From a virus: a DNA stretch of 38,533 nucleotides. Position 1 is the first letter of the stretch. Every line of letters starts with the position of its first letter. Positions 1-38,533 of the stretch are shown in pieces. The stretch spans positions 1-38,533 of IMG/VR virus record IMGVR_UViG_3300045988_077292; one strand, given 5' to 3'. The notes below the pieces were generated by a model. It worked only from the letters and a program-made list of their open reading frames with translations. It was not told the origin of the DNA and did no database searches. The translations under genes and the position numbers were made by a program.

Positions 1-55
1 AGCGGTGGATGGATAGGTAATGGAGTGTACGATGCATCGTTCACCAGTGACACAG
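1..55. repeat. Terminal overlap copy 1 (identical to 38479-38533)
   Basis: agcggtggatggataggtaatggagtgtacgatgcatcgttcaccagtgacacag occurs at both ends. This is typical of a circular contig closed by a k-mer overlap. Confidence 0.95.
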
Positions 56-3000
56 CGAGGTATATAGAGCGCCAGCAGGCAAAGAAACGTGTAGCTGAAT
101 TGCGAGGTGTCCCGTATGACCAGTTTGATGATGGAAACATACGCTACTCCCGGCGTGACGTGGGGCTGGACGACACGGCGGAGCAGCGCCGCGGCAGACA
201 GGAAAGCTACGCAGATCTCAGACGCAGGAACGCGGAGCTTGAGCGGCGCGTGGAATACTGGAAAGGTCAGACGAGGACAAGCAAGGCAGCGACCGTGCGC
301 CAGACGGACACGGACGCATTCGCCCGGCAGCTGATGAACGACGCATACAACAGTGACCGGGAGACGCTGGGTAAGGTGAAGGACAGCCTCAAGGGGCTGG
401 GCGATTACATTGTGCAGTCGAGGGCGGAAGACCTGGACTATGCCACGATACACGAGATTGCCACGGAGACGGCGGACATGATACTGCAAGGGTCATACAC
501 CACCATCGACGACACGAACGCGGACAACCGCGAGCAGCTGCACGACTATCTGCACAGCACGAAGCTTGCCATGAACGAGCGGGAAATGCTCGACCTGCCG
601 GAGGGCTGGCGCCAGAAGAACCGCGGCAACATCAAGCTGAGCAAGGACGGGCTGCCGGTAGACACAGCGTATGGAGAGCTGCAAGGGATGTTCGGCGAGG
701 GAACATTCCCCTCGGACATCACAAGCCAGGCAGACATGCTGCAGCGCATAGCGGACGTGGAGCGGGCGTGGAGACCCGTGAAAGCCAACCCGTTCGCAGA
801 GTACATGGCGGAGATGCGCGAGAACATGGCACAGGAGATCATAGACACAATGCTGTCGGATGAGATACGCCAGACCCCGCCCACAGCAATGGACAGAGCC
901 GTCGCCCGTGAGACGGAGCGCGTCGCCGGGGAGCGGAGAAAGAACCGTGAGCTTCAGCAGCGCATAGCACAGGTGCAGCAGGAGGGCATAGAGCGCACGA
1001 GGAAAGCCGTGCAGGATGAACGGCGGTTTCAGCTGCAGCGGCAGGAGCGGGCACAAAAGGTGAAGAACATAGAGAAGATGATCACCCGCTGGGCAAAGCA
1101 GCTGACGGACAACACGGGCAAGAGCCACATACCCGACGCGCTGAAACAGCCGATAGGGCAACTGATACGGAGCATAGACCCGACGACAAAGTACACCACA
1201 GCAAAAGGCAGCGCCGCCCTCGCGGACCGTCTGCGCCGGGTGGGCGACGCACTGGAGAAACAGCAGAAATACAACATGGGCGACACCGCGGAGGGCGGCG
1301 CGGATGTGTACATCGACCTGCCGCCAGAGATAGGCAGCCGACTGCGGGAATATGCAGAAGATATTGAGGACGCAGCAAGCATACGGCGCGAGTGGAAGCT
1401 GGAGGACATGGACTTGCAGGAGCTGGCGGAGCTGGAAGATATGCTGACCAGCGTGCGGGATTCTCTCAAGAACGCAAACGAACTGTACAGCATGAACATG
1501 AAGGCGGACGCGCTGGGCGACGAGACAGTGAAGTATCTGAACAAGCTGCCCGCAAAAACCAAGGCGGCGAGATTCGAAGAGAAGTTCCTCGGCTACACAA
1601 ACCAGACCCCGGTGTATTTCTTCAAGCGCTTCGGCACAGGCGGAGAAAAAGTATTCAAGTCCCTTGCCGATGGTTGGGAAGACTTCGCATTCAAGGCAAA
1701 TGCAATACGGGAGTTTGCTGAAAAGCTGTACAACTCCAAGGAGGTACGCGAGGCGGAGCAGACCATAGTGCAGGTGCAGCTGCACGACAAGCTTGCAAAC
1801 GGGCTGACGAACGAGGAGACCGTGCCGGTGTACATGACCAAGGCACAGATCATGTGCCTGTACGGGGCGACACTGCGCGGCGAGGCGGCGCTGAATCACA
1901 TCCTCGGCGCCGGCATAAAGCTCACGGACATCAAGCAGCCACGCGGGAAGGACACGATCACGCAGAGCGACAACTACCTCACCACGGCGGAGGAGTTGGA
2001 AAGCATCATCAACGACAACCTCAGTGAGCGGGATAAAGAGATCGTGCGCGGCATGATAAAGTTCATGAGCACAACGTGCGCGAACTGGGGCAACGCCGTG
2101 AGCCAGAAGCGCTGGGGAATCAATCTGTTCACGGAAGACAGCTACTGGCCCATATCCACGGACAGCCGCAGCCGCGACGTGAAGAGCGGCGAGGCGGCGG
2201 GCAGCAGCACAAGTATGTACCGGCTGGCAAACATGGGCTTCACAAAGCCGCTGACGCCGGGGTCAACAAACCCGATGGTGATAGGCAGCGCGTTCGATGT
2301 GTTCGCCAACCACACATCCGACATGGCAAAGTACGGCTCAATGGTGCTGCCGATACTGGACGCGATGAAGTGGATAAACTACAGCGCTACGATGGAGACG
2401 AGCGGGACACAGTACACCACGGCGTCCGTGCGCAAGGCGATGGACAGAGCTTACGGCGTGGACGCACAGAACTATTTCGTGAAGCTCATGCGTGACCTCA
2501 ACGGCAGCAAGGAGGGCGGCAGAGAAACCAACGGGTTGGAGACATGGACAGCAAGATACAAACGGCAGGCAGTGTCCGGCAACCTCCGCGTCATGCTGCT
2601 GCAGCCGACAGCTTACGCACGCGCCGGGATGGTGATAGACCCGAAGTATCTGGTCGTCGGAGCGATCGGGCAGCACGAGGTAATAAAGAACTACCGGGAG
2701 GCGATAGCAAACAGCGGCACGGCACTGTGGAAGAGCATGGGGTTTTACGATGTGAACATCAACGCCTCCATGCGGGACCTCATAAAGAACGACGAGAGCG
2801 CCGTGGACAAAGTTGTCGACTGGACGATGAAGGGCGCAGAGCTTGGCGACCAGTGGACGTGGTCGATGATCTGGCGGGCGTGCCGGACGGAGCAGCAGGA
2901 CATAGCGCGCAAAGGCAGAGAACAGCTGACACATGAGGAGCTTATGCAGCGCACGGCGGAGCGCTTCCAAGAAGTGATCTATCAGACGCAGGTGATGGAT

Positions 3001-4761
3001 TCCACACTGACGCGCAGCCAGATAATGCGGAGCGACGACAAGCTGAACAAAGCGCTGACTTCGTTCATGGCAGAACCGACGCTGACATACAACACGCTGT
3101 CGAACACGTACCTTGAGTACCAGAGACTGAAAGGTGCGGAGGGCGCGCAGACGGCGTGGAAGAAGTGCGGCGGGCAAATCGCCCGGGCGCTGGGCGTGTA
3201 CACGGTGAGCGCGGCGCTGCAAGCGGTAGTGGAGAGCATACCGGACGCATGGCGCGACGACGATGAGTACATGACGTTCATGGAAAAGTGGCTTGAAAAG
3301 TTCTGGGGCGAGGAGAGTTTCCTTGATGGCAACCTCGCGTCGGAGCTGAATCCGTTGAACAAGCTGCCGGTAATAAAGGATCTGCTCAATGCGCTGGAGG
3401 GACACGCATCAACCAATATGTCGACCGAGGGATTATCTTCGGCAGTGAAGTTCCTCAATACCTTCTGGGATAAAATCCAGTACTGGCTGGGAGAGACGGA
3501 CGGCTCAGACATAAAGGTCACAGATTGGGGCTGGATATATCAAGGGTTGAAAGCCGTGTCACAGTTGGTAGGCATACCGGGGTACAACATCGTGCGTGAT
3601 GTAGTAGGTGTTTGGAATTCAACCTTTGGCACATGGACGGATATGAGAATCAGAACGTATGCGGCGCGCCCGGAGAGCGAGATAAAGAACGCATACCTCA
3701 AGGGGTATCTGACTGATGAGGAAGCCAAGGAGCTGCTGATGGACGCCAAGACCATGGGCGACAATGTGTACTGGACTGAGCACGCCGCCACTGTACAGAT
3801 AAACGATTGGGCGAACGACAGCGGAGAGGTCTACGCAGATCTGTACACCGCAATGGAGAACGACGATCGCACGGCATACGACGCAGCGTTCAAGGCATTG
3901 ACCGACACGGGACGCTACGCCTACGACGTGCAGAGCAAGGTGAAAGAACAGATCAAGGAGTGGTATGCCGGGGACAAGCGCGGCAAGATTGTACTTGCGA
4001 AAGAGCAGACCATAGCAATGCTCAAGGAGTTCGGCGGCATGACAGACCATGACGCCAAGGTCACAGCACAGCAGTGGACGTGCAAGCAACAGGAGGGCTT
4101 TGACTACAGCCAGAGAAAGAAGCTGTTCCTCTCCGGGGACATTGACAAAACAGAAGCGGTGTACTTGATAAAGACCTATGGTGTGGACGACGACGGGAAG
4201 CTGCTGGCGGACTATAAGGACAAGACCAAGGCAAACGCAATCGCGGAAAAGGAAGTGCGCAAGTGGTCGATGATAACCGAACAGGGCATAGACTACGACG
4301 ATATGCGCGACGCCTACAATGCCGGTGAGATCACACTGGCGCAGGTCAAGGAGTGGAGCATGGATTACGGCAGTGAGGATGAGAAAACCGCAGACAACAA
4401 GTGCTACCGCTGGGAATGGATAGCCGGAAGCGAAGAGCTGAAAGGAACGACCGGCGCACAGGCGCGGAGGTACGACACTTACATTGCTGCGGCGAACGTG
4501 GACATGACCAAGGAGCAGTATTACAATTACATCGACGGTCACGAAGCGAATACGTTCCACGCAGACCTCATGCCGGGGAGCACAACGGTGTATATAAAGT
4601 ACTCCAAACGAGACAAGGCATGGGCATACATTGACAGTCTGCCGATCACGGCAGCACAGAAGGACGCGCTGGCAATGTGCTACGCTGCGGACAACAGCAA
4701 AGAACTGAATAACCCCACAAAGACTTGGATGATGCTTGAAGACGCCCCGTGGAACAACTGA
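1..4761 (+). CDS. C-terminal 1586 codons of the giant 2852-aa polyvalent-type virion protein (continues from 34681-38533 across the circular junction)
   Basis: Frame 1 is open from nt 1 to TGA 4759-4761. The listed ORF 25..4761 is only its internal GTG. The same frame is open to the very end of the window, and 38479 is equivalent to nt 1. It contains an FFKRFG motif (1609-1635) and long helical regions. Confidence 0.85.
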   Translation, partial: SGGWIGNGVYDASFTSDTARYIERQQAKKRVAELRGVPYDQFDDGNIRYSRRDVGLDDTAEQRRGRQESYADLRRRNAELERRVEYWKGQTRTSKAATVRQTDTDAFARQLMNDAYNSDRETLGKVKDSLKGLGDYIVQSRAEDLDYATIHEIATETADMILQGSYTTIDDTNADNREQLHDYLHSTKLAMNEREMLDLPEGWRQKNRGNIKLSKDGLPVDTAYGELQGMFGEGTFPSDITSQADMLQRIADVERAWRPVKANPFAEYMAEMRENMAQEIIDTMLSDEIRQTPPTAMDRAVARETERVAGERRKNRELQQRIAQVQQEGIERTRKAVQDERRFQLQRQERAQKVKNIEKMITRWAKQLTDNTGKSHIPDALKQPIGQLIRSIDPTTKYTTAKGSAALADRLRRVGDALEKQQKYNMGDTAEGGADVYIDLPPEIGSRLREYAEDIEDAASIRREWKLEDMDLQELAELEDMLTSVRDSLKNANELYSMNMKADALGDETVKYLNKLPAKTKAARFEEKFLGYTNQTPVYFFKRFGTGGEKVFKSLADGWEDFAFKANAIREFAEKLYNSKEVREAEQTIVQVQLHDKLANGLTNEETVPVYMTKAQIMCLYGATLRGEAALNHILGAGIKLTDIKQPRGKDTITQSDNYLTTAEELESIINDNLSERDKEIVRGMIKFMSTTCANWGNAVSQKRWGINLFTEDSYWPISTDSRSRDVKSGEAAGSSTSMYRLANMGFTKPLTPGSTNPMVIGSAFDVFANHTSDMAKYGSMVLPILDAMKWINYSATMETSGTQYTTASVRKAMDRAYGVDAQNYFVKLMRDLNGSKEGGRETNGLETWTARYKRQAVSGNLRVMLLQPTAYARAGMVIDPKYLVVGAIGQHEVIKNYREAIANSGTALWKSMGFYDVNINASMRDLIKNDESAVDKVVDWTMKGAELGDQWTWSMIWRACRTEQQDIARKGREQLTHEELMQRTAERFQEVIYQTQVMDSTLTRSQIMRSDDKLNKALTSFMAEPTLTYNTLSNTYLEYQRLKGAEGAQTAWKKCGGQIARALGVYTVSAALQAVVESIPDAWRDDDEYMTFMEKWLEKFWGEESFLDGNLASELNPLNKLPVIKDLLNALEGHASTNMSTEGLSSAVKFLNTFWDKIQYWLGETDGSDIKVTDWGWIYQGLKAVSQLVGIPGYNIVRDVVGVWNSTFGTWTDMRIRTYAARPESEIKNAYLKGYLTDEEAKELLMDAKTMGDNVYWTEHAATVQINDWANDSGEVYADLYTAMENDDRTAYDAAFKALTDTGRYAYDVQSKVKEQIKEWYAGDKRGKIVLAKEQTIAMLKEFGGMTDHDAKVTAQQWTCKQQEGFDYSQRKKLFLSGDIDKTEAVYLIKTYGVDDDGKLLADYKDKTKANAIAEKEVRKWSMITEQGIDYDDMRDAYNAGEITLAQVKEWSMDYGSEDEKTADNKCYRWEWIAGSEELKGTTGAQARRYDTYIAAANVDMTKEQYYNYIDGHEANTFHADLMPGSTTVYIKYSKRDKAWAYIDSLPITAAQKDALAMCYAADNSKELNNPTKTWMMLEDAPWNN

Positions 4762-17808: not shown

Positions 17809-17815
17809 GCACGTT

Positions 17816-21236: not shown

Positions 21237-21258
21237 TCTAATCACCCCCTTTGTGCTG

Positions 21259-21287: not shown

Positions 21288-21318
21288 GAAAAAACACAAC
21301 TAAGTGGTGAAAAAATGC

Positions 21319-27680: not shown

Positions 27681-27700
27681 GGGGAGAGCGATCTCCCCTC
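27679..27700 (+). other. Hairpin GAGGGGAGA gcga TCTCCCCTC at the end of the early operon (no U-tract)
   Basis: Perfect 9-bp stem, read directly. Confidence 0.45.
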
Positions 27701-27792
27701 GCATGAACAATGATTTGGAAAGAGCTGCAATATAAAGGGCGGCTGCTTCGAGATCATTGTACCTTATTATATAAAATAGAGAGTACAGACTT

Positions 27793-27818
27793 GAAACGCG
27801 CGCGGGCGCGCACGTTTC
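27793..27818. promoter_or_regulatory. GC-rich palindromic hairpin GAAACGCGCGCG gg CGCGCACGTTTC upstream of the Rep-like gene; candidate origin/nick-site structure
   Basis: 11 of 12 positions pair. It is embedded in an AT-rich 165-bp intergenic region 50 nt upstream of the HUH gene. Confidence 0.4.
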
Positions 27819-27868
27819 TTGTGAGACTTTTAAAAGGTTAAATTAACGACGGAGGATAAAAGAAAGGA

Positions 27869-28669
27869 ATGAGACGACTGATGGAATACAAGATAGTATC
27901 GGGGAATGTTGTGGAGATCAGACGGACATACATGAATGTCCGTGCTGGGTCTCCACAGAGGAAGCCGCGCGGCCAGCGCATAGCCGGGAACACCTCCGCC
28001 AGAAAGATAAAGGCGAATGAGAATGAAGCCGTGAAGCAGCTGGCGCGCACGCTCAATGCCAACCTCAAGAAGGGATGGCTGTGGGTCACGCTGAAATATG
28101 AGAACGAATATCTGCCCGTGGATTACTCCGCCCTTGAACAGAATGGGGGCAAGTTCACACGGGCTCTTCGTGCTGCATTCAAGAAAGAGAACGGGCGTAA
28201 CCCTCAGTACATCTGGGTGAATGCCAACTGGTCGCCGGAGCGGGACGCGCCCGCAAGGCTGCACCATCATCTCGTGATAGAGGCGTGCAGTCTGGATATG
28301 CTGGCGGAGCTGTGGAAGTATGGCAGCGTGTCCGTGGAAGAGATCGACGGACGCGAAGACCACACGGCGCTGGCGGTGTACATAGTGAAGAACGTGCACG
28401 GGCTTGAGCGCGGGAAGAACAAGTGGAGCACGAGCCGGGGCAATCTGCTGAAACCCATATACACAGAGCCGGAGGAAGTGACAGACGGTGGAGTGGAAGA
28501 CATAGCCGTGCTGCCGACAGCGAGACAGACAGCGTTTGAAAGGCTGGACGATGAGTGTGGGCGAGCCGTGAGCGCATACGTGCGGTGCATACTGCCGGAG
28601 AGACCAAAGGTCAGAGGCGGGCAGATAATAATACAGCGCCCGAAGAAACGCGGAGGAAGGAGAAGCTGA
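27869..28669 (+). CDS. HUH-superfamily rolling-circle replication initiator-like protein (266 aa)
   Basis: Three motifs in canonical order and spacing: WVTLKY (aa 72-77, motif I), RLHHHLVIE (aa 130-138, HUH), AVYIVKN (Y171-x2-K174, motif III). Confidence 0.6.
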   Translation: MRRLMEYKIVSGNVVEIRRTYMNVRAGSPQRKPRGQRIAGNTSARKIKANENEAVKQLARTLNANLKKGWLWVTLKYENEYLPVDYSALEQNGGKFTRALRAAFKKENGRNPQYIWVNANWSPERDAPARLHHHLVIEACSLDMLAELWKYGSVSVEEIDGREDHTALAVYIVKNVHGLERGKNKWSTSRGNLLKPIYTEPEEVTDGGVEDIAVLPTARQTAFERLDDECGRAVSAYVRCILPERPKVRGGQIIIQRPKKRGGRRS

Positions 28670-28986
28670 TGAGCAAGATAAGAACGACGCTGTGCGCGTC
28701 ATGCTATGCCAAGCTCAGCAAGCTGTACCGGCTGCGTGAAGTGCCCGCGGTGTATCAGCGCGCGGGGTACAACAAGTGTTCGCTGTGCGACTTCGCCGGG
28801 CAGCTGACAGAATACAGCTACGACCCGGAGAGTGATAGGCGCACGGAACGGGAGCGCCAACAGATGAAGGAGCGGGAAGCCGGGGCAAGAGCGCAGCGCT
28901 TCCGCCGAACGGAAGAGGAGAAGCAGGACTGCATGTTCAGTGCTGCCGACTTCGACGCGCTCGACGATGTGCTGAGACGGATATAG
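28669..28986 (+). CDS. Zinc-ribbon-like protein (105 aa)
   Basis: TGATG coupling. CASC...CSLC pairs and a basic/acidic C-terminus. Confidence 0.55.
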   Translation: MSKIRTTLCASCYAKLSKLYRLREVPAVYQRAGYNKCSLCDFAGQLTEYSYDPESDRRTERERQQMKEREAGARAQRFRRTEEEKQDCMFSAADFDALDDVLRRI

Positions 28987-28996
28987 GGGGTGCGGC

Positions 28997-29230
28997 GTGC
29001 CAAGCGTGAGGGAAACATGGAACGCGGCGGACGTGCGCTGCCCGTTCTTCATGGGCGAGAAGCCCGGCAAGAAGAGCGTGGTGTGCGAGGGGTTCGGCGA
29101 GAAGATGAAAGTGAACGTGGAGTTCACAAGCCTCAAGGCGAAGAGTTCATACATGGGGCGGCACTGCGTGGGACCCTATGAGCGCTGCCCGCTGTACCAA
29201 ATGACGATAAAAAAATATGAGATCGAATAA
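28997..29230 (+). CDS. Small Cys-rich protein (77 aa, GTG start)
   Basis: AGGGGG sits 6 nt before GTG 28997. Sequence includes VRCPFF...VVCEGF...RHCVGPYERCPLY. Confidence 0.5.
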   Translation: MPSVRETWNAADVRCPFFMGEKPGKKSVVCEGFGEKMKVNVEFTSLKAKSSYMGRHCVGPYERCPLYQMTIKKYEIE

Positions 29231-29231
29231 C

Positions 29232-29262
29232 TTAGAGCGTCCGAAAAAATCGGGCGCTCTAA
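29232..29262 (+). terminator. 12-bp hairpin TTAGAGCGTCCG aaaaaat CGGGCGCTCTAA, followed by an A-tract and no U-tract; possible weak terminator
   Basis: Its architecture (A-rich loop, then an A-run, then the 24-bp box) mirrors 4781-4850. Confidence 0.45.
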
Positions 29263-29269
29263 AAAAATA

Positions 29270-29315
29270 GGGATAAAAAGTGCCATAGAGAAAAGCGCAT
29301 CGACCTTGCTATAAT
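29270..29315 (+). promoter_or_regulatory. Late promoter cassette 2: GGGATAAAAAGTGCCATAGAGAAA, 13 nt, then TGcTATAAT
   Basis: The 24-bp box and its spacing are identical to 4827-4872. It lies upstream of the packaging genes. Confidence 0.7.
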
Positions 29316-29347
29316 AAAATCAAAAAGCAAGCAAGGAGGCGGACACC

Positions 29348-29641
29348 ATGAGCGGGATGAGGAGCACGGCACAGCGCTTGCAGATGGCACTCGTGATGAG
29401 CGGGTGCAACGTAAGCCTAAACAGCAGACAGTTTTACAGCACGAAGTATCAGAAGATCGTGACCTGCTGGAAGATACACGAGGACAACAAGCTCGTACTG
29501 AAAACCTATTCGAGCGTCGCCGTGGTGCAGACGCTAGCGGAAATGTACAAGGAGGTGCGTGATGAAGAAGCTGCCGCCAAAGAAAATGAAATTCGCGGAG
29601 GCGTACATCCGGCTAAACAACCAGACACAGGCGGCGATTGA
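29348..29641 (+). CDS. Hypothetical protein preceding terS (97 aa; the 3' 80 nt overlap terS)
   Basis: GCAAGGAGGCGGACACC ATG. The long overlap makes the true C-terminus uncertain. Confidence 0.45.
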   Translation: MSGMRSTAQRLQMALVMSGCNVSLNSRQFYSTKYQKIVTCWKIHEDNKLVLKTYSSVAVVQTLAEMYKEVRDEEAAAKENEIRGGVHPAKQPDTGGD

Positions 29642-29960
29642 GGCGGGGTACTCCCCTGCCAGCGCACGCACAGCCGGGTATAGGCTGCTGCAAAAAGATG
29701 ATGTGCAGGAGTACATACGCGAGCGCCTGCGCGAGATAGACGAGCAAGAGATAGCCAAGACCAACGAGGTACTGCGCTTTCTGTCAAGCGTCATGCGCGG
29801 AGAAGTGCAGGACCAGTTCGGGCTTGACGCACAGCTGGCGGACAGGATAAAGGCAGGGACGGAGCTGCTGAAAAGATACGCCTCGGTCGAGGCGGAGGAA
29901 AAAGGCGCGGAGGCTGTCACCATTGAGTTCGTCGCGCGGACGGAGGAGGCGGCGCAGTGA
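29562..29960 (+). CDS. terS: Terminase small subunit (132 aa from ATG 29562)
   Basis: KFAEAYIRLNNQTQAAIEAGYSPASARTAGYRLLQKDDVQEYI is the typical Terminase_2-type HTH N-terminus. AAGGAGG sits 6 nt upstream. Confidence 0.85.
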   Translation: MKKLPPKKMKFAEAYIRLNNQTQAAIEAGYSPASARTAGYRLLQKDDVQEYIRERLREIDEQEIAKTNEVLRFLSSVMRGEVQDQFGLDAQLADRIKAGTELLKRYASVEAEEKGAEAVTIEFVARTEEAAQ

Positions 29961-31390
29961 AGCGACTGGAGATACCGGAGCCAAGCGCAAAGCAATGGCT
30001 GTTCCTGCGGGACCGGCACAAGTACGTATGCTACGGCGGGGCGCGCGGCGGCGGGAAGAGCTGGGGCGTGAGGGTCAAGGCGATACTGCTGTGCGAGAAC
30101 TACGCCGGCATAAAGGTGATGATCGTGCGCCGGAGTTACCCGGAGCTGTACGCCAACCACATAAAGCCGCTGACAGAAATGCTGCGGTGCGACAGCGAGA
30201 ACGACGCGCTGGCAAGGTACAACGACCAGCGCAAGGAGATGGCATTCCCCAACGGCAGCAGAATCATTTTCAGATGCTGCGAGCGGGAGCGGGACGCGGA
30301 CAGATTCCAGGGCACAGAAGTGGACGTGCTGTTCGTGGACGAGGCGACGCACCAGACCGAGAGCGTGATGGCAAAGCTGACGGCGTGCGTGCGAGGAGTA
30401 AACGATTTTCCCAAGCGGGTGTATTACACCTGCAACCCCGGCAACGTGGGGCACGAGTGGGTGAAGCGCCTGTTCATTGATCGGCATTACAAAGACGGCG
30501 AGACCCCGGAGGACTACAGCTTCATCCAAGCCGGTGTGCGGGACAACGTGGCGCTGATGAAAGCACAGCCGGACTACATCAAGCAGCTGGAAGCGCTGCC
30601 AGCGAAGCAGAGGGCGGCATGGCTGGACGGAGACTGGGACGTATTCGAGGGCGCATTCTTCGATGACTTCCGTGTGACGCCGGACATCAAGGCGGCGAGA
30701 GACGCAGGGTGCGATCTGTCCCCGGAGGAGATGAGACGGCAGCACAAGTGGGTGCACGTCATCCCGGCATTCGACCTCAACGCCGGGGCAAGCCGGGGCT
30801 GGAACATCATCCGCAGCTACGACTTCGGCTATGCCAAGCCGTTCTCCTGCGCGTGGTGGGCGGTGGACTATGAGGGTGTGCTGTATCGCATACTCGAATG
30901 GTACGGCTGCACGGACACACCGAACGAGGGCATACGCTACACCCCGGAACAGCAGTTCGCAGAGATAGCACGCATTGAGCGGGAACACCCGTGGCTAAAA
31001 GGAAAGCGCATTGACGGCGTGGCAGACCCAAGCATATGGGACGCGAGCCGAGGAGAGAGCATAGCAGAGACGGCGGCGAAGTACCGAGTGTGGTTTTCTC
31101 CCGGAGACAATCAACGCATACCCGGATGGATGCAGTGCCATTATCGCTTGCAGTTTGACAACGAGGGCTACGCCAGAATGTATGTGTTCGACACGTGCAA
31201 GGCATTCATACGCACGGTGCCGCTGATGCAGCACAGCGTACACAAGCCGGAGGACTTGGACACGACGCAGGAAGACCACGTGTGTGACGAATGGAGATAC
31301 ACCTGCATGTCAAGACCCATTGCCCCGCTGGTCAAGAAAGAGAACGCACACCCGATGATAGACCCGCTGAATATGTTCAGCAAACAATAG
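29957..31390 (+). CDS. terL: Terminase large subunit (477 aa)
   Basis: Walker A GGARGGGKSW, Walker B VLFVDEAT, and a C-terminal nuclease region. GTGA overlap with terS. Confidence 0.9.
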   Translation: MKRLEIPEPSAKQWLFLRDRHKYVCYGGARGGGKSWGVRVKAILLCENYAGIKVMIVRRSYPELYANHIKPLTEMLRCDSENDALARYNDQRKEMAFPNGSRIIFRCCERERDADRFQGTEVDVLFVDEATHQTESVMAKLTACVRGVNDFPKRVYYTCNPGNVGHEWVKRLFIDRHYKDGETPEDYSFIQAGVRDNVALMKAQPDYIKQLEALPAKQRAAWLDGDWDVFEGAFFDDFRVTPDIKAARDAGCDLSPEEMRRQHKWVHVIPAFDLNAGASRGWNIIRSYDFGYAKPFSCAWWAVDYEGVLYRILEWYGCTDTPNEGIRYTPEQQFAEIARIEREHPWLKGKRIDGVADPSIWDASRGESIAETAAKYRVWFSPGDNQRIPGWMQCHYRLQFDNEGYARMYVFDTCKAFIRTVPLMQHSVHKPEDLDTTQEDHVCDEWRYTCMSRPIAPLVKKENAHPMIDPLNMFSKQ

Positions 31391-31405
31391 AGAGGAGATA
31401 CCCCC

Positions 31406-33298
31406 ATGGATGAAACAAGAACGAGTGACATGATGAACACGGCGCCGCTGACACCGGAGCCGGTAATGGCAGACACCACGGTGCTGACACAGACTGCACC
31501 GCCCGTGAACGAGGAGACGCTGCGGAAGTTCAACGATACCTTGCAGAAGTACAAGAGCGGGAAGAACAGCGTGGAGCGCCGCGCCATCGAGGCAGAAAAC
31601 TGGTGGAAGCTGCGCAACCAAGTGGAGATCGAGAAGCAGACCAAGGGACTGACAGGGTACAAAGCCAAGAGCGGGTGGCTGCACAACGTGATAGTTGCCA
31701 AGCACGCCGACGCAACAGAGGCATACCCGGAGCCGAACATACTTGCTCGCGAGCCGGACGATGTGAAGGAGGCGGGTATGCTATCAAAGATAATCCCGGT
31801 GGTGCTGGAAGCCAACCGCTTTGAGGAGGCATACAGCGACGTCGCGTGGCAGAAGCTCAAGACCGGCACGGGGATATACAAGGTCTGGTGGGACGCGAGC
31901 AAGCTCAACGGTCTGGGCGATATAGCAATAGAGCGGGTGGATGTGCTCAATGTGTTCTGGGAGCCGGGCGTGACCGACATACAGAAGAGCAAGTACTTCT
32001 TCCACACGGCGACGGTGGACAACGAGGTGCTGGAAGGAATGTACCCGCAGCTCGTGGGCAAGCTCAAGGCAATGACATTTGTGCCGAACAAATTCAGAAC
32101 GGATGATACTGTCCCCGTGGATAAGAAGAGTGTGGTGATAGACGTATACTACAAGTTGCACCGCGAGGGGAAGACGGAGCTGCATTACTGCAAGTACGTA
32201 GGCGGAGAGATACTGTACAGCAGCGAGAACGCGGGAGAGCCGCTGTATGATCACGGGCTGTACCCCTTTGTGTTCGACACGCTGTTCCCCATTGAGGGAA
32301 GCCCGTGCGGCTATGGGTACATAGACCTGTGCCAGAATGTGCAGACGCAGATAGACCTCATGCAGACGGCGTTCATCAAGAACTCCATGGTGGGCGCGAT
32401 ACCCCGGTACTTCATGCGCATAGACGGCAGCATAAACGAGGATGAATTCCTTGATCTTGACAATCCCATCGTGCACGTGAACGGCAACCTCGGCAAGGAC
32501 AGCATGACCCCGGTGGAATACAAAGCACTGAGCGGGAACTATCTGGACGTGCGCACGAGCATGATAAACGAGCTGAGAGAAACGAGCGGGAACACAGAGG
32601 CATCGAACGGCGTTATCTCTTCCGGCGTGACTGCGGCGTCGGCAATCGCCGCACTGCAGGAGGCGAGCGGCAAGGGCAGCCGTGACAGCAGCCGTTCAAG
32701 CTACCGGGCATACTCGCGCATAGTAAACCTGTGCATTGAGCTGATCCGGCAGTTCTATGATATGCCGAGGCAGTTCCGCATCACGGGACAGCTGGGCGCG
32801 GAGACCTTTGTGCGGTACAGCAATGAAAACATTAAGCCGCGCGAGGAGCAGAGCGGGAACATCATGCTGGTGCGTCTGCCGGAGTTCGACATCAAGGTCA
32901 GCCCGGCGAAGAGATCAAGCTACAGCAGGATAACGCAGAACGAAATGGCGCTGCAATTCTACAACCTTGGATTCTTCAACCCGCAGCAGACGGACCAGGC
33001 GCTGGCGTGCTGCTCCATGATGGACTTTGATAACAAAGACGTGGTGATGCAGATGATCAACTACAACGGGACGATGTACCAGAAGCTCGCGCAGTATCAG
33101 CAGTACGCACTGGCAATGACGCAGAAGTACGAGCCGGACAAGGTGGACGCATTGGCCGCGGCGATCACAGGCAACGCTGCACCGCAGACAGTACGCACGA
33201 GCAGCGAGGAAGTGAAGCTCAGCCCGGACACCGAGGAGGACACGCGAGTGCAGAACACGCGGGCAAAGAGCCAATCGTATTCACAGCCGGAGGGATGA
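31406..33298 (+). CDS. Portal protein (630 aa)
   Basis: Its size and position directly after terL fit. LQKYKSGKNSVERRAIEAENWWKLRN is a motif common at portal N-termini. Confidence 0.8.
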   Translation: MDETRTSDMMNTAPLTPEPVMADTTVLTQTAPPVNEETLRKFNDTLQKYKSGKNSVERRAIEAENWWKLRNQVEIEKQTKGLTGYKAKSGWLHNVIVAKHADATEAYPEPNILAREPDDVKEAGMLSKIIPVVLEANRFEEAYSDVAWQKLKTGTGIYKVWWDASKLNGLGDIAIERVDVLNVFWEPGVTDIQKSKYFFHTATVDNEVLEGMYPQLVGKLKAMTFVPNKFRTDDTVPVDKKSVVIDVYYKLHREGKTELHYCKYVGGEILYSSENAGEPLYDHGLYPFVFDTLFPIEGSPCGYGYIDLCQNVQTQIDLMQTAFIKNSMVGAIPRYFMRIDGSINEDEFLDLDNPIVHVNGNLGKDSMTPVEYKALSGNYLDVRTSMINELRETSGNTEASNGVISSGVTAASAIAALQEASGKGSRDSSRSSYRAYSRIVNLCIELIRQFYDMPRQFRITGQLGAETFVRYSNENIKPREEQSGNIMLVRLPEFDIKVSPAKRSSYSRITQNEMALQFYNLGFFNPQQTDQALACCSMMDFDNKDVVMQMINYNGTMYQKLAQYQQYALAMTQKYEPDKVDALAAAITGNAAPQTVRTSSEEVKLSPDTEEDTRVQNTRAKSQSYSQPEG

Positions 33299-33301
33299 GC
33301 G

Positions 33302-33613
33302 ATGACCAAGATAACATACGACGCAGAGAACTACACCTTGGAGATGGACGGGCACGCCGGAGCGGGAGCGCCGGGACAGGACATCGTGTGCGCGGCAGAG
33401 ACGATACTCATGCGGGCGCTCGTCGCCGCAGTGATGGATGAACAGTCAAAACTCTGTCCCTCAGTGCGGCAACGGAGCGGGTACGCAAAGGTGCAGTGCG
33501 CCCCCACACCGAGAGCAAAGACAATGTGCAAGGCAATGATGCAGACGATCTTCATGGGATATGAACTGCTCGCCCAGCATTACCCGGAGCACGTCAAGGT
33601 ATACACAGCATAA
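33302..33613 (+). CDS. prp: Prp-like cysteine protease (DUF464 / ribosomal-processing protease family, 103 aa)
   Basis: GHAGAGAPGQDIVCAAETIL matches the GHA...DIVCAA His/Cys dyad signature (H18, C30). The size is typical of the family. Confidence 0.75.
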   Translation: MTKITYDAENYTLEMDGHAGAGAPGQDIVCAAETILMRALVAAVMDEQSKLCPSVRQRSGYAKVQCAPTPRAKTMCKAMMQTIFMGYELLAQHYPEHVKVYTA

Positions 33614-33627
33614 GGAGGAAAAGAAAA

Positions 33628-34668
33628 ATGGCAATGCTCGGAGAAGAGAAAAAGCAGCAGCAGACAGACGCAACAGCAGTCACACAGAACACGAGCGGGA
33701 GCAGCCAGCAGACACAGCAGAGGGAGACCTCGCCCAAGCAGACTGTTACCCCGCAGCAGACCGCCGCGCAGAACACCCAGCCCGCCGTACAGCAGACGAC
33801 CGCACCCCAGCAGACCGTGACGCCGACAGCAGCGCAGACCACGGGCGGGACACGGAGCGCGGCATACGACCGGGCGATGGCGACATTGAAGAAGGCAGAG
33901 AACAACGCGCCTTCGTATTCATCCTCATACGACGATGAGATCAACGAGATATACAACAAGATCACAAACCGGCAGCCGTTCAAGTATGACTACAGCACAG
34001 ACCCGCTGTATGGCCAGTACAAGGAGCAGTACACCCAGCTGGGCAAACAGGCAATGCGCGACAGCATGGGGCAGACGGCGGCACTCACGGGCGGCTACGG
34101 CAACAGCTACGGCAGTGCGGTGGGACAGCAGCAATACGACGCATACCTGCAGCGACTGAACGATGTGCTGCCGGAGCTGTACGGACAGGCATACAACCTC
34201 TACGCCGCGGAGGGCGACGCGCTCAAGGAGCGGTACACTCTTGCGGCAGATCAGCGCAACACAGAGTACAACCAGTTCCGCGACGCACTGTCAGACTTCC
34301 GCTATGATCAGTCGCTCGACCTTGAGAAGGCGCGGCAGCTGGCCGAAGACCTCGGCGCATACGGAGACTTCTCCGGCTACGGGGAGCTGTACGGTGAGGA
34401 CGCGGCGGCGAGGATGGCGAAGACATGGGCGGCGGCAAACCCCATACCGGCATACATCAACGGGCAGATAACCGCGGACGAATACTACCAGATCACCGGC
34501 GAGTACCCCTATGGCTATACGCCTCCCGGCACGGCGGTAAGCAGCGGCGGAGACAGTGGCAGTGGCGGTGGCGGTGGCTGGGACCCCGGTAACCACGCTT
34601 ACGTGAACAGGGAAAACTACTACAGAGTTACTGGCAAAGACCCGTGGGGAATATTCGAGAAGAAATAA
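33628..34668 (+). CDS. Head-module protein of unknown function, Gln/Thr-rich N-terminus (346 aa)
   Basis: AAGGAGGAAAAGAAAA ATG. Core FKYDYSTDPLYGQYKEQYTQLGKQAMRDSMGQTAALTGGYGNSYG looks like a family often seen next to portals in Firmicutes phages. Not verified. Confidence 0.6.
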   Translation: MAMLGEEKKQQQTDATAVTQNTSGSSQQTQQRETSPKQTVTPQQTAAQNTQPAVQQTTAPQQTVTPTAAQTTGGTRSAAYDRAMATLKKAENNAPSYSSSYDDEINEIYNKITNRQPFKYDYSTDPLYGQYKEQYTQLGKQAMRDSMGQTAALTGGYGNSYGSAVGQQQYDAYLQRLNDVLPELYGQAYNLYAAEGDALKERYTLAADQRNTEYNQFRDALSDFRYDQSLDLEKARQLAEDLGAYGDFSGYGELYGEDAAARMAKTWAAANPIPAYINGQITADEYYQITGEYPYGYTPPGTAVSSGGDSGSGGGGGWDPGNHAYVNRENYYRVTGKDPWGIFEKK

Positions 34669-34680
34669 GGAGGCAGTGCA

Positions 34681-37600
34681 GTGTCAACAAGAGCTGAACG
34701 GGAAGAGAACATAGCGCGTGTACGAGAAGAACGGGAAGAGAACATAGCGCGTGCGCGAGGAGAAGAGTATACAGGAAGCAGCGGACAGGGAACGTCCGCT
34801 GCTTCCCGTGGTTCAAGCGGGAGCTCCGCATGGAAAAAAGGCAGCATTCCGAAAGGCTTTGTAAAGAACCCGTTGGCATTCGCTGGTGGGATAAAGCCTG
34901 TCGATACACGCCCCAGCGTGGTGTCAATGGCACGCGCACCTTTCGAGTATGCCGCACAGCAGAGGCAGAAAGAAGCAGAGATACAAGACCTCAACCAGAA
35001 GTATAAGCAAGCATACCTTGACTACAATTCCGCCCGCCGCGCCGTGACAGCCGCGAGCAAGGGCAAGAGCACAGCAAACTATGACGTGGCCAAAAGCAAG
35101 ATGACTGAGGCAAGCAAACTTGTCGACGCATACAAGAAGCGCGTGGAGGAAGCGGGCGGCGCACTGTGGACACCGACAAACTGGCTGGACACTGTGAAGT
35201 GGAGTGCACGAGCGGGACTGACAAGTGCGGACAGCGCGATAGCAAAGGGGCTTGACTGGGCAGTCGGAGGATTCGCAGATGAGCTGCGGACATTGGCCGG
35301 TGTGACGGCAAATGATATAAGCCCTGCGCTTGCCGACAGCGCGGCGAACCTTGCAACAAAAGCGGGACGTTTGATAAACCCGAACTACACCTACGGAGAA
35401 AACAACTTCCTCAAGCAATACGTAGAAGAGGGCAACCGCAGAATCAACGTGCAGCATGAAGAGATGGCGCGCGCGGCGAGCGACAGCAAGGCAGCACAGA
35501 CTGTCGGGAAGTATACCGAGATGATCATGAACTCGCTGCCAATGTCAGCAATGGCGCTGCTGTCGGGCGGCACGACGGCAGCGGCACAGGCAACAACGGA
35601 GGCACTGCAAGCTGCTTCAACGCTTGCGAACAGCAGCAGAGCGGCGCAGATAGTCACACCCATACTCAAGGCAACAACGGACATGGCAAAAGATCCAAAC
35701 TGGGGATTCACATTCATGAGCGTTGTCGGCGACAGCTACGAGAACGCGCTGGCAGATGGAGCGAGTGAGGACCAAGCGTCCCTTTATGCGATACTGAACG
35801 CGGCATACAACGCAACGACAGAGATAGGCGGCTCGGACGAAATGCTGGGCGGCTTACAGAAGCTGCCGAAGAATATCCGCGACGCGCTTGAACGCGCAGA
35901 CAACAGCGTGCTGCTGCAAATAGTAAAGGGAATCCCCTCAGAGATAGGCGAAGAAATTGTACAGGGCATAGGTGAGAGTGGACTAAAGTCTACATACAAA
36001 AATGTACCGGTATACTCTGCCACGGATGAGGGAGCAATGATAAACCCAAGCCGCATGAAAGATGAAGCCCTCGGCGCGGCGGTGGTGTCCGCTGTGCTGG
36101 GCGGCGGACAGTCAGCAATAGGAGCTGGCACGTATGCCATAGAGAACGGCATAGCACAGCGGCAGTACCGAAACAAAGTAGCCCAAACATACGGCGGCTC
36201 GGCGGCTGAACTCGTGGAGAGTGGGCTTGAGAGCGCACCGGGGACAAAGAGCCGGACGCTTGCCGAAGCCTACAAGGCAAAGCTCGACAGCGGGAAGAGC
36301 TTGACGCCGCGAGAGCTGACGAATCTCGTGAAGGCAAACGAGGAAGCAATACGCGCAGAGAGCGCGGCGGAGGCCAGCACCGTGCAGGGAACAGACGACA
36401 CGTCAGAAATGGTCACGAGCCCTGCACAGACGCAGAACGTGACGGAGGAGCGGACACCCGTGCAGACCGCCGCGAGCACGCAGACGGCAGAGAAAGCACC
36501 CACGGGGGTGTACGAGGCAAAGTATAAAGGGCAGACGGGCGACGTGGTGGCATTCGCCAGGCAAGGAGACAGCTTTGCCATGCGGATAAAGATGCCCGAT
36601 GGCACGAGGCGCGACGTAATGGAGAACCAAGTGACGCTCGACCCGGCGACGCGGGAAATGCTGGACACTGTACGCCCGTATGATTACGGCGATGAGATAC
36701 TTACATCATACCGTGCAGCAGAGAATGGGGACAACTTCAAGCTGTTCACACAGGCATTCACCACGGTTGCGGATCTGTACGGCAAGGAGACCACGGTCAC
36801 AGCGGAACAGGCATACGCCGACAGCGTGAAGAACGGCGGCGCTGCAACGGTGCTGACGAGGGAGCAGTTCAACAAGGCGTTCGACATCGGGCGGAGCAGC
36901 CGTGATGCGCGCGTGGTGAACACGGCGGCACGCCAGCGCGGGAGCGGGAACGTGTACTTCAACAAGGTTGTGGACTTCGGCGGAGAGAGATACGCCGCCG
37001 CGACGGAGGACATGGTGAGTGCAGACGAGCTGTCAGTCATCAAGACGATAGCCAAGACGGCGGGCGTGGACGTGGTGTTCTACCAGTCCGAGACGGACAT
37101 GAGCGGGAGGTACGTCGGTGCGAACGGATTTATGCGCAACGGGACAATGTACCTCGATGTGAACGCCGGAGCGACCAGGACGACGGAACAGTCCGCCGTG
37201 CTGCTGACAGCGGCACACGAGCTGACGCACTACATCAGAGAGAACAACGCCGAGGGGTACGCACAGCTCCGCGACTTCGTGACACAGAACCTGATAAAGG
37301 ACGGCGTGAACATTGAGAAGCTGGCAGAGCAGAAGATCGCGCGCGAGGACGGCACACTCTCAATGGATGAGGCGGTTGAGGAGGTCATAGCCGACAGCTG
37401 CGAGACCATGCTGGAGGATACGAAGTTCCCGGAGCTGATGGCAAAAGAAAACCCCGGTCTGTGTGAACAGATCAGGGATTGGTTGGCGGACTTCACAGAG
37501 AAGCTGCGCCGCGCATTCAGCGGAGTAAAGGCAAGGCACGAGGAAGCGCGGGCAATGCTGAACTATGCAGAGGAGCTGCACGAGCTGTGGGACAATGCTC

Positions 37601-38533
37601 TCGTTGCCGCCGTGCGCAACACCGAGGCGGTTTCCGATAACGGCACGGAGGAAAGCGGCCAGACAGGATGGGTGCGCAATTCCAGCAGGGAAAGCAGCAC
37701 AAATACAACAGGTATAAAAGAGCAGATAGAAGAGAATCGTGACAGGCTTAACAGCATGGACGTGGTAGCAGTTGCAACTGTTCCTACAGACCTAGGAAAC
37801 TTCGACGCAGTAACAGCGTGGGCGATGAAGGAATTAAAGCGCACGGGTTATGCGGTAGACAAGCCGGGATTCGGGAGAATAATATTTGATGAGCGGCAGA
37901 TACGGAACGGTGTGAAGTACGCAAAAACGCCAGCAGAGAAAGCGGCGTTTGCTGTTCTTGACAAAGTGCTGAAACGCGGCGTAGAAATAGGCGCGCACGG
38001 CAACCACAAGAACAGGGAGAAAGAAACTGTCACATTCGCAGCGCCAGTTGAGTTGAACAACATACGGGGTAATATGGCGGTTGTGGTAAACAGAAGGGGC
38101 AACACTTACTACGCGCACCGCATTGTACTTCCCGATGGAACGGAGTTTCGATTCACAGAAAAAAAGGATGCAGTACAAGGACCGAAACGGGGAGTTACCC
38201 GAACGGGCTCTCTTGCCGAATCCACAAGTACTACATCCGAGAATAATATACCACAGCCCGTCGAGGAAAGCAATACCAAATATTCCAGGCGAGAGCTGGA
38301 TGAAGATTTGCAGAAGAGGTACCCCCAGCTGAATTTGAACGAAGACATTTCGGAGCTTGACGGTGTACCAGCAATAGAACTGACAGATGGCAGCATTCTC
38401 CCAATAAAGGACAGAGAACGATATAGAACTCATGTATCATTCATAGAAGGGAATCGAATAGATGTAGATGACTTGCGCAGCGGTGGATGGATAGGTAATG
38501 GAGTGTACGATGCATCGTTCACCAGTGACACAG
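34681..38533 (+). CDS. N-terminal 1266 unique codons of the giant 2852-aa polyvalent-type virion protein (runs off the window end, continues at nt 1)
   Basis: AAGGAGG at 34667-34673 sits 7 nt before GTG 34681. I translated every codon to 38533 and found no stop. Hydrophobic segments lie near 35520-35580 and 36060-36130, and HELTH is at 37216-37230. Confidence 0.85.
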   Translation, partial: MSTRAEREENIARVREEREENIARARGEEYTGSSGQGTSAASRGSSGSSAWKKGSIPKGFVKNPLAFAGGIKPVDTRPSVVSMARAPFEYAAQQRQKEAEIQDLNQKYKQAYLDYNSARRAVTAASKGKSTANYDVAKSKMTEASKLVDAYKKRVEEAGGALWTPTNWLDTVKWSARAGLTSADSAIAKGLDWAVGGFADELRTLAGVTANDISPALADSAANLATKAGRLINPNYTYGENNFLKQYVEEGNRRINVQHEEMARAASDSKAAQTVGKYTEMIMNSLPMSAMALLSGGTTAAAQATTEALQAASTLANSSRAAQIVTPILKATTDMAKDPNWGFTFMSVVGDSYENALADGASEDQASLYAILNAAYNATTEIGGSDEMLGGLQKLPKNIRDALERADNSVLLQIVKGIPSEIGEEIVQGIGESGLKSTYKNVPVYSATDEGAMINPSRMKDEALGAAVVSAVLGGGQSAIGAGTYAIENGIAQRQYRNKVAQTYGGSAAELVESGLESAPGTKSRTLAEAYKAKLDSGKSLTPRELTNLVKANEEAIRAESAAEASTVQGTDDTSEMVTSPAQTQNVTEERTPVQTAASTQTAEKAPTGVYEAKYKGQTGDVVAFARQGDSFAMRIKMPDGTRRDVMENQVTLDPATREMLDTVRPYDYGDEILTSYRAAENGDNFKLFTQAFTTVADLYGKETTVTAEQAYADSVKNGGAATVLTREQFNKAFDIGRSSRDARVVNTAARQRGSGNVYFNKVVDFGGERYAAATEDMVSADELSVIKTIAKTAGVDVVFYQSETDMSGRYVGANGFMRNGTMYLDVNAGATRTTEQSAVLLTAAHELTHYIRENNAEGYAQLRDFVTQNLIKDGVNIEKLAEQKIAREDGTLSMDEAVEEVIADSCETMLEDTKFPELMAKENPGLCEQIRDWLADFTEKLRRAFSGVKARHEEARAMLNYAEELHELWDNALVAAVRNTEAVSDNGTEESGQTGWVRNSSRESSTNTTGIKEQIEENRDRLNSMDVVAVATVPTDLGNFDAVTAWAMKELKRTGYAVDKPGFGRIIFDERQIRNGVKYAKTPAEKAAFAVLDKVLKRGVEIGAHGNHKNREKETVTFAAPVELNNIRGNMAVVVNRRGNTYYAHRIVLPDGTEFRFTEKKDAVQGPKRGVTRTGSLAESTSTTSENNIPQPVEESNTKYSRRELDEDLQKRYPQLNLNEDISELDGVPAIELTDGSILPIKDRERYRTHVSFIEGNRIDVDDLRSGGWIGNGVYDASFTSDT
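34696..34761 (+). repeat. 2 x 33-bp tandem duplication inside the giant gene (EREENIARVRE / EREENIARARG)
   Basis: gaacgggaagagaacatagcgcgtg is repeated in phase, with 25 of 33 leading nt identical. Confidence 0.9.
38479..38533. repeat. Terminal overlap copy 2 (identical to 1-55)
   Basis: Exact 55-nt identity with the window start, read directly. Confidence 0.95.

Follow-up and report, generated by a model that had tools for sequence, protein, structure and literature searches.

A giant polyvalent-type protein of a temperate phage with a linker-bounded zone of exchangeable cassettes

Main

In the window analysed here, that is, the whole 38,533-nucleotide (nt) stretch of IMG/VR virus record IMGVR_UViG_3300045988_077292 (positions 1 to 38,533), one gene of 2,852 codons runs across the two ends of the contig and encodes a giant protein in which conserved parts flank a zone of exchangeable cassettes. 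The evidence supports reading this protein as a phage-type polyvalent protein as defined by Iyer, Burroughs, Anand, de Souza & Aravind 2017 (PMC5512222), a class predicted in that study to be a major means by which phages and plasmids disarm the host on entry. We further consider it probable that the protein is a conserved giant carrier with swappable effector cassettes, which would be packaged, ejected with the DNA and act against host defences or on host physiology. Such proteins were recognised as a class in 2017, and a database entry for this one, under the name of hypothetical protein, already exists; what is new is the exact extent of the cassette zone and the finding that a genome 95% identical has other sequence in its place, a linker motif, the size of a core family that has no structural relative, and a conserved partner gene. 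To our knowledge, almost no polyvalent protein has been studied experimentally, and the present case is a small natural system suited to such work: the phage, temperate and from the gut, invests 22% of its 38-kb genome in a single protein, its sister genomes (~95% identical) vary in the cassette that occupies a 330-residue slot, and a candidate linker or cleavage motif makes the proposed processing by a zincin directly testable.

A single gene across the contig ends

34681..38533, + strand: 5' part of the giant gene, amino-acid positions (aa) 1–1284 (nt 38479–38533 repeat nt 1–55)
1..4761, + strand: 3' part of the giant gene, aa 1267–2852 plus TGA 4759–4761
34669..34673, + strand: ribosome-binding site GGAGG, 7 nt 5' of the GTG start, read from the sequence

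The first 55 nt of the window are identical to its last 55 nt (nt 1–55 = 38479–38533), the sole terminal overlap among the lengths checked (10–400 nt). The frame that begins at GTG 34681, preceded by the in-frame stop TAA 34666–34668, stays open through the last base, and with the ends merged at the overlap the first stop is TGA 4759–4761, which gives 1,266 codons to nt 38478 and 1,586 from nt 1. The initial annotation had proposed this closure, with a share of about 22% of the genome for the gene, and both its coordinates and its arithmetic were reproduced: the circularised contig translates as one 2,852-codon frame with no stop at the junction. The gene (8,559 nt) takes up 22.2% of the 38,478-bp circle and encodes a product of 317.7 kDa with an isoelectric point (pI) of 5.2.

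As assemblers commonly work with a k-mer of 55 and the ends meet within a hypervariable zone, the long frame might be thought an assembly artefact, that is, a chimeric circularisation at a k-mer overlap. Exact, internal copies of the entire 8,559-nt gene occur, however, in three independent ENA contigs that other assemblers built from other samples (L001, a 40,688-bp k141 contig; L002, a second 38,533-bp scaffold that is broken elsewhere; and L003), a 655-nt stretch spanning the junction is likewise exact and internal in all three, and dozens of full-length homologs align through the junction. Because independent contigs contain both the whole gene and the joined ends unaltered and away from their own termini, the junction is not a chimeric join, and we regard the artefact explanation as refuted, with a negligible probability. 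The gene is real, and an open frame of 2,852 codons cannot be a chance event.

NCBI nr already contains the identical 2,852-aa protein ('MAG TPA_asm: hypothetical protein [Caudoviricetes sp.]', 6 contigs; P0001). The earlier warning that a linear annotation would split the gene thus holds for the permutation of this record and fails for other public records, which call the gene intact. Since the break here splits a gene in its hypervariable zone, circular contigs are best closed before genes are called. The contig break falls within the only hypervariable stretch of the giant gene, and strain mixtures at that stretch could be the reason that assemblers open the circle there.

A variable zone filled with exchangeable cassettes

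37807..38112, + strand: LPD3 domain, aa 1043–1144, first cassette of the variable zone (sub-threshold Pfam LPD3 match)
38278..38295, + strand: linker 1, K-Y-S-R-R-E, aa 1200–1205
38296..38478 followed by 1–141, + strand: cassette X, aa 1206–1266 then 1267–1313, an acidic module of 108 aa
142..159, + strand: linker 2, R-Y-S-R-R-D, aa 1314–1319

A conservation map (BLAST against the 120 best homologs, 2,400–4,900 aa long) divides the protein into well-kept and poorly kept parts. The stretch at aa ~1580–2486 is found in all 120 homologs, aa ~713–1000 in 93–115, aa ~137–560 in 80–105 and aa 2487–2852 in about 70%; coverage is lowest at aa ~1000–1320, where relatives have additional or different sequence. 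The variable zone proper (aa ~985–1312) is a slot of ~330 residues between the peptidase and the core. Its replacement can be followed in a 39.3-kb phage from the Hadza gut (L009), which matches window positions 27236–34596, 34775–37631 and 137–11409 at ~95% nucleotide identity and has no detectable nucleotide similarity over window positions 37632–38478 plus 1–136 (aa 985–1312), the counterpart of which lies at 11478–12742 in that phage. Outside this zone only the tail fibre and lysis genes diverge; the variable zone is replaced wholesale in an otherwise ~95%-identical genome.

Among proteins that are 94–95% identical to the giant protein in the C-terminal half there are at least five architectures of this zone, and they differ by whole cassettes. 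The layout in this phage is ...NTKYSRRE-[X]-IRYSRRD-VGLDD..., and in P0006 and P0012 cassette X is precisely missing (...NTKYS(R/M)RD-VGLDD...). In P0009 and P0010 an ART-PolyVal domain takes its place between the same two linkers, P0003 has cassette X followed by ART-PolyVal, and P0011 has a different cassette plus ART-PolyVal.

For the first cassette, the Pfam family LPD3 (PF18798) matches aa 1043–1144 searched alone along its whole profile (positions 9–114 of 114) at a sub-threshold score (E=3.6e-4, 21.1 bits), and the homologous segment of P0042 clears the family cut-off at 30.3 bits. The module is basic (pI 10.1 for aa 1040–1150) and in a low-confidence model consists of three helices followed by a four-stranded sheet. 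What had been called a small nuclease-like module is thus probably LPD3, a family that has no assigned function; in relatives PBECR3 (a predicted RNase) fills the neighbouring slot, so that 'nuclease-like' is a reasonable guess. Cassette X has no Pfam or family match.

In a Pfam search of the inserts of ten relatives, ART-PolyVal, LPD3, LPD23 (beside a second HExxH domain), PBECR3, MuF_C and LPD1 pass threshold, as do PBECR5 (30.5 vs 25 bits) and, alone among methyltransferase domains and barely, Methyltransf_23 (28.4 vs 27 bits); the relatives with domains in this slot are 39–95% identical to the giant protein. Relatives of 4,000–4,900 aa carry SNF2/ResIII helicase domains, the SNF2 helicases too falling in this slot, and, in five cases (P0088, P0099 and P0109–P0111), an Eco57I-type methylase. 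All these belong to the domain families by which polyvalent proteins were defined. Within the giant protein itself the zincin is the only predicted enzyme, and it stands beside domains of unknown function.

A linker motif at the cassette boundaries

In the closer clade a motif, (K/R)(Y/F/S)S(M/R)R(E/D), is present at every cassette boundary, with K31/R16, Y26/S15/F8, S49, M32/R9, R48 and E25/D24 as the counts over 49 distinct sites. It occurs 96 times in 74 close-clade proteins where shuffling predicts 16 occurrences, and a looser pattern 173 times where 21 are expected. The deletion, replacement and addition events around cassette X fall exactly at KYS(R/M)R(D/E) linkers. As the two linker copies of this phage encode the same peptide with different codons (TATTCCAGGCGAGAG vs TACTCCCGGCGTGAC), selection seems to act on the peptide and not on a recombination sequence.

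Processing by zincins has been predicted for the peptidases of polyvalent proteins (PMC5512222), and the motif may, as a tentative suggestion, be a site at which the built-in zincin cuts; alternatively, it may be a conserved inter-domain hinge. A Prp-type cleavage leader, LQ(F/Y)F↓A (the arrow marks the cleavage point), is absent from the giant protein. Such a leader, ...WLQYFA↓D, heads the scaffold-like and capsid proteins of the phage instead, and Prp is therefore unlikely to process the giant protein.

The leader shared by the N termini of the scaffold-like protein (MNSKKYWLQYFA↓DG...) and the capsid protein (MNKFKWLQYFA↓DA...) resembles the L27-type Prp cleavage site ...LQFF↓A of the Staphylococcus/80alpha literature. 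Given this shared leader and a phage-encoded Prp, the two proteins are probably trimmed by the phage's own protease.

N-terminal block and zincin-like peptidase

35089..36360, + strand: conserved N-terminal block, aa 137–560, Ala/Gly-rich and helical (80–105 of 120 homologs; model confidence, as predicted local distance difference test (pLDDT), below 50)
36511..36639, + strand: small beta-barrel, aa ~611–653, Tudor/SH3-like in the model (strands E475–517 of the model, pLDDT 70–86)
36817..37680, + strand: zincin-like metallopeptidase block, aa 713–1000 (invariant motif plus model topology)
37216–37230, + strand: HELTH motif, aa 846–850
from nt 37381, + strand: E901-VIA-D905 (ExxxD)

The HExxH module noted earlier is borne out. 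Relatives with as little as ~21% identity all retain H846, E847, H850 and E901, the last of these residues opens an ExxxD motif, and the AlphaFold2 model of the block (pLDDT 75–90) presents a helix, a three-strand sheet, the HExxH helix and a Glu-bearing helix (model elements H645–658, E661–666, E681–683, E686–690, H703–719 with HExxH, and H759–770 with the Glu). It corresponds to the zincin core as defined previously, in which helices flank a sheet of three strands and the helix with HExxH is followed by one that bears the Glu (PMC5512222). Outside aa ~607–986 the N-terminal model is poor (pLDDT 52). A Foldseek search of this model against PDB gave no zincin match, and a profile of the block searched against Pfam and PDB sequences recovered sub-threshold zincins only (eCIS_core, E=0.11; Reprolysin_3, E=0.083; MMP-8, E ~0.7). 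The block is thus zincin-like by its motif and modelled topology, and is not assigned to a named peptidase family.

Upstream, the conserved N-terminal block contains two moderately hydrophobic Gly/Ala helices (aa 281–300 and 462–482). The second, a conserved Gly/Ala-rich helix (ALGAAVVSAVLGGGQSAIG), has the highest 19-residue Kyte–Doolittle mean of the protein, 1.4, which lies under the usual transmembrane range, and by this measure no convincing transmembrane helix is present. The hydrophobic helices claimed initially are thus conserved but only marginally hydrophobic, and the claim is weak. The small beta-barrel between this block and the peptidase matches Tudor/SH3 barrels in Foldseek with a probability of 0.9–1.0 and an E of ~1, that is, weakly.

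A large conserved core without a structural relative

160..939, + strand: helical, coiled-coil-like connector, aa 1320–1579 (kept in the closer clade; long helices in the model)
940..3660, + strand: conserved C-terminal core, aa 1580–2486 (120 of 120 homologs; mostly helical)
3661..4758, + strand: C-terminal tail, aa 2487–2852, helical hairpins (~70% of homologs; pLDDT 84–91 for aa ~2549–2739)

Scans of the whole protein with Pfam, NCBIfam and phmmer against PDB sequences gave no match, and the sole match in PHROGs is phrog_22978 (function unknown), which covers aa 1285–2488 (E=3e-155). The core belongs to a very large family: an HMMER search with aa 1580–2486 across 1.84 billion representatives returned 3,368 clusters (representatives at 50% identity) at E ≤ 1e-3, 2,679 of them at E ≤ 1e-30, and the matches sit almost always near the C terminus of proteins of 2,000–4,800 aa. 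By tblastn the C-terminal half (aa 1267–2852) found one match in 50,697 GenBank phage records, an unannotated 4.8-kb gut fragment. The core has no Pfam or NCBIfam family, and this large conserved C-terminal part of the giant-protein family is undescribed.

The AlphaFold2 model of aa 1540–2739 (pLDDT 68.7; predicted template-modelling score 0.57) has ~50 helices and few hairpins. Foldseek against PDB found no fold match (best E 0.13, to unrelated helical proteins), and hmmsearch of PDB sequences with the core profile recovered designed helical bundles only and no solved relative. A search of BFVD returned 55 matches with E ≤ 1e-3, the strongest at 1.8e-38. Each is part of a giant protein from an uncultured phage and takes its name from other domains of that protein (MuF C-terminal, nuclease, PolyVal ADP-ribosyltransferase, LPD, RelA/SpoT or type I restriction enzyme), and among them is a 'structural protein' from Tenacibaculum phage Gundel_1. 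In the tail, four loose G-x-(I/L)-x-x-x-(E/Q)-A...G repeats can be discerned, and BLAST detects no significant internal repeat.

At about 60 positions the residue of the core never varies; many of these residues are polar, and an RDDD(D/E) cluster (R-D-D-D at aa 2351–2354) is among them. N4-type polymerase modules are typically fused to zincins and associated with ART and PBECR domains (PMC5512222), and for these two reasons the idea of a virion RNA polymerase was tested. It was rejected: no polymerase match was obtained in Pfam, in PDB sequences or with Foldseek. More broadly, the core could be an enzyme (for example, an N4-like or crAss-like virion RNA polymerase) whose main job is to start phage gene expression or replication, as the invariant polar residues might suggest. 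We consider this very unlikely, given that no Pfam, NCBIfam or PDB-sequence match was found, that Foldseek of the medium-confidence model returned neither a polymerase nor any other PDB fold at E<0.1, that the model is almost all-helical and contains no double-psi barrel or palm-like sheet, that the acidic cluster differs from a DxDxD motif, and that the repressor/Cro switch of this phage is typical of phages transcribed by the host polymerase.

Position in the late operon and a conserved partner gene

head of the late operon: small terminase
29957–31390: TerL
31406–33298: portal, P22-like
33302–33613: Prp cysteine protease
33628..34668, + strand: 346-aa partner gene, directly upstream of the giant gene
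4949–5962: scaffold-like gene
5997–7139: major capsid protein, HK97-type
after the capsid gene: two small proteins
7921–9666: 581-aa protein matching phrog_511 'internal virion protein'
9781–11709: collagen-like tail fibre
after the tail fibre: three small proteins, then endolysin and holin

The giant gene lies in the head-morphogenesis block, after the portal and Prp genes and before the scaffold and capsid genes, as had been proposed, with one addition: the 346-aa gene at 33628–34668 had been overlooked, so that the order is TerL, portal, Prp, the 346-aa gene, the giant gene, the scaffold-like gene and the capsid gene. The giant gene starts 12 nt past the upstream stop and is co-oriented and tightly packed with the head genes.

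The 346-aa protein has a Gln/Thr-rich N terminus and a Tyr/Gly-rich centre and matches no family. Two distant phages, L004 (45% identity; 5929–7986) and L005 (34%; 7018–7992), also have a homolog of it immediately before the giant gene; there the pair follows the homolog of the 581-aa internal protein and not the portal, the giant gene still being inside a block of virion genes. As the pair is kept at a different operon position, the partner and the giant gene move as a unit within the late operon and make up a mobile two-gene module.

Genes for a tail tube, sheath, chaperone or tape measure were not seen in the genome, and ~8 genes lie between the capsid and lysis genes. The particle is most likely that of a podovirus, and the absence of a tape measure is therefore to be expected and leaves no gap for the giant protein to fill. 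The initial annotation was thus right that no tape measure is recognisable, whereas the argument built on it is moot, the P22-like portal and the short set of tail genes being podovirus-like. The giant protein as a tape measure was rejected, given that there is no long-tail module and that the gene is located in the head block.

These same features bear on a structural alternative, in which the packaged protein forms or extends a channel across the envelope, the zincin helps to breach the wall and the cassettes are accessory. Such an ejection or conduit protein would suit a podovirus-like phage with a P22-like portal and few tail genes; the conserved parts (~2,000 aa) far exceed the variable zone, the helices of the N block are conserved, Gly/Ala-rich and moderately hydrophobic, the same role has been proposed for the virion-borne phi24B gp47, and a separate phrog_511 gene (7921–9666) indicates that another internal virion protein is present. 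No segment reaches the usual transmembrane hydropathy, however (maximum Kyte–Doolittle 1.4), the fold comparison linked it neither to a solved ejection protein nor to another PDB entry, and a single hypervariable internal zone together with the enzymatic cassettes of relatives suits the delivery of effectors better than a pure channel. We therefore regard a primarily structural role as rather unlikely, and note that it overlaps with the carrier explanation and that both may hold together.

Relationship to polyvalent proteins and known virion-delivered systems

The initial annotation had recognised the architecture of a polyvalent protein, and the zincin motif and topology, the full-profile (sub-threshold) match to LPD3, the polyvalent domains of the homologs and the location in a late operon uphold that reading. 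Several domains of the known repertoire occur in one polypeptide (the zincin, sub-threshold LPD3 and, in full-length homologs, domains that pass threshold), so that the giant protein belongs by homology to a family rich in polyvalent domains; the gene lies among the late virion genes of a phage with portal and terminase; and the architecture varies between relatives. For this class packaging into the virion has been predicted (PMC5512222).

In common with previously described members (for example, WP_004096050.1 of an Acetonema longum prophage), the giant protein is very large and multi-domain, lies in the late or virion block and has a zincin-like hub and a sub-threshold match to LPD3; its relatives carry ART-PolyVal, PBECR, MuF_C, LPD1, LPD23, methylase and SNF2 helicase domains, and close relatives differ in how their domains are arranged. 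It differs in that about two-thirds of it (the N block, core and tail) matches no Pfam domain, including those from that study, in that it carries one predicted enzyme, and in that its cassette zone is short and bounded by linkers, of which we found no such description in PMC5512222.

The closest functional parallel is gp47 of the Stx podovirus phi24B (Traversvirus), which a 2026 preprint reports to be abundant in virions by proteomics and invisible in the cryo-electron microscopy map, and proposes as a packaged ejection protein (bioRxiv 10.64898/2026.04.10.717836). Both are polyvalent proteins of ~2,800 aa (gp47, or vb_24B_48, has 2,807 aa in GenBank, with LPD5, LPD1, MuF_C and LPD38) from temperate podoviruses, and both combine variable cassettes with a conserved C-terminal module of ~900 aa. 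The C-terminal module of gp47 contains LPD38, whereas the giant protein has none, and the gp47 gene lies at the far end of the late region and not by the portal. Comparison of the core with gp47 gave E values of at least 2 by BLASTP, insignificant profile–sequence scores and hhalign probabilities of 0.6–2.9%; as no homology is detectable, gp47 is a functional analogue and not a relative. In phi24B (L007, HM208303) the gene is at 29149–37572, and in its homologs (P0271–P0390) the C-terminal ~900 aa, including LPD38, likewise form a conserved, carrier-like module, which in many sequences of proteobacterial and marine origin is preceded by ART-PolyVal, methylase or LPD3 cassettes.

The virion RNA polymerase of N4 (gp50, 3,500 aa) is also a giant podovirus protein with a zincin; it travels inside the head, leaves it together with the DNA and needs its terminal regions for encapsidation and injection (PMC5512222); the giant protein differs in having no RNA-polymerase module by sequence or fold. 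With DarB of P1, a head-packaged methylase–helicase that counters restriction by the host, the likeness is one of domain content: 4,000–4,900-aa homologs of the core carry SNF2/ResIII and, in five, an Eco57I-type methylase, whereas the giant protein has neither methylase nor helicase. SPP1 gp7 and Mu F share the position of the gene after the portal, and MuF_C occurs in relatives of the giant protein; MuF-fused toxins share the fusion of cargo to a head-incorporation module for delivery to the host, which for the giant protein is a proposal. The giant protein has no Phage_Mu_F domain (no match at E ≤ 1) and is more than ten times larger.

A hypothetical model for a carrier with swappable cassettes

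We envision the protein as four fixed parts (that is, the N-terminal Ala/Gly-rich block, the HExxH...ExxxD zincin, the ~900-aa core and the helical tail) with a plug-in zone between peptidase and core in which linker-separated cassettes would be strung together. In this phage these would be LPD3 and the unnamed 108-aa module, and in sister phages an ADP-ribosyltransferase, a PBECR3 RNase, MuF_C, LPD23 plus a second zincin, or methylases or helicases. Synthesized late, alongside the head proteins, the protein may enter the procapsid by means of its conserved parts, possibly with the 346-aa protein, and would be expelled through the portal together with the DNA; the cassettes may then target host defences or physiology in the first minutes of infection, and the built-in zincin may cut the linkers and free them. 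We infer packaging, ejection, proteolytic processing and an anti-defence role, the virion delivery and ejection parts being based on gene context and on the analogy with the N4 virion RNA polymerase and phi24B gp47. As a more speculative extension, which we hold to be possible at best, the core, the N block and the 346-aa gene might together represent an undescribed and very widespread carrier of tailed phages, that is, a virion-delivered polyprotein with cassettes released at the linkers by the zincin; this would amount to a modular, rapidly re-armed anti-defence payload. The fold or function of the core, once solved, would annotate many genes (thousands of phage proteins).

Several observations weigh against the carrier reading. 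The LPD3 match stays below the 27-bit Pfam gathering cut-off, the zincin block passes threshold for no curated peptidase family, and the arsenal of the giant protein is thin, 'disparate activities' being seen in its relatives only. The core has no homology to the LPD38 module of phi24B or to solved structures, which makes that precedent one of analogy only, and its many invariant polar residues could point to a catalytic role in place of that of a carrier. Enrichment of the linker motif is only slight in 46 distant homologs (22 occurrences vs 14 expected), and packaging, ejection and cleavage are inferred for every member of the giant-protein family. Finally, one homolog (P0094, 3,704 aa, with LPD1) is encoded in an island that has an integrase but, over a distance of 8 kb, not one virion gene; not every family member therefore lies in a phage structural block.

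The same island would fit an account in which the giant protein is never packaged and has a cytoplasmic late or prophage role, such as the exclusion of superinfecting phages or that of a defence protein which the host has captured. Host genomes that have taken up polyvalent proteins have been described (Iyer et al., PMC5512222), and the phage is temperate, with a serine integrase at 17816–19432 (−). We nevertheless judge this account improbable: the gene points the same way as those for portal, Prp, scaffold and capsid, sits tightly among them and starts 12 nt past the upstream stop, relatives keep it in the virion block despite changes of position, and a late cytoplasmic protein of 318 kDa that takes 22% of a small genome would be costly. 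A carrier with swappable cassettes remains our preferred reading.

Lysogeny region, source and other loci

17816–19432, − strand: large serine recombinase/integrase (Resolvase, Recombinase and Zn ribbon)
20331–21299, − strand: two repressor-like helix-turn-helix (HTH) genes
22385–22831, + strand: Cro-like DUF739 gene
27869–28669: rolling-circle-type replication initiator

The serine recombinase, the repressor-like HTH genes and the Cro-like gene form a lysogeny switch, on which grounds the phage is temperate; the switch is held in a stretch of low G+C content (0.46–0.49 vs ~0.57 elsewhere) with a dip at 20–24 kb. The relatives come from human gut metagenomes, a Candidatus Limivicinus contig and a metagenome-assembled genome (MAG) of Ruminococcaceae, and the host of this gut phage is probably in Oscillospiraceae or Ruminococcaceae. 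A scan of GTDB genomes with the core found a single relative, 39% identical, in a Ruminococcaceae MAG, and no prophage copy of this phage.

The locus of P0094 (L006, ENA k141_887449; gene at 8001–19115) is a chromosomal island that also encodes a tyrosine integrase, regulators of the HTH type, an IstB-like ATPase, Fic/RhuM and barnase/barstar; it may be a satellite or other mobile element with its own polyvalent protein. In the window, the tail-fibre gene (9781–11709) contains long collagen-like Gly-X-Y repeats with internal repeat cross-matches, and is a second hypervariable locus, in parts of which identity to L009 falls to 72–83%.

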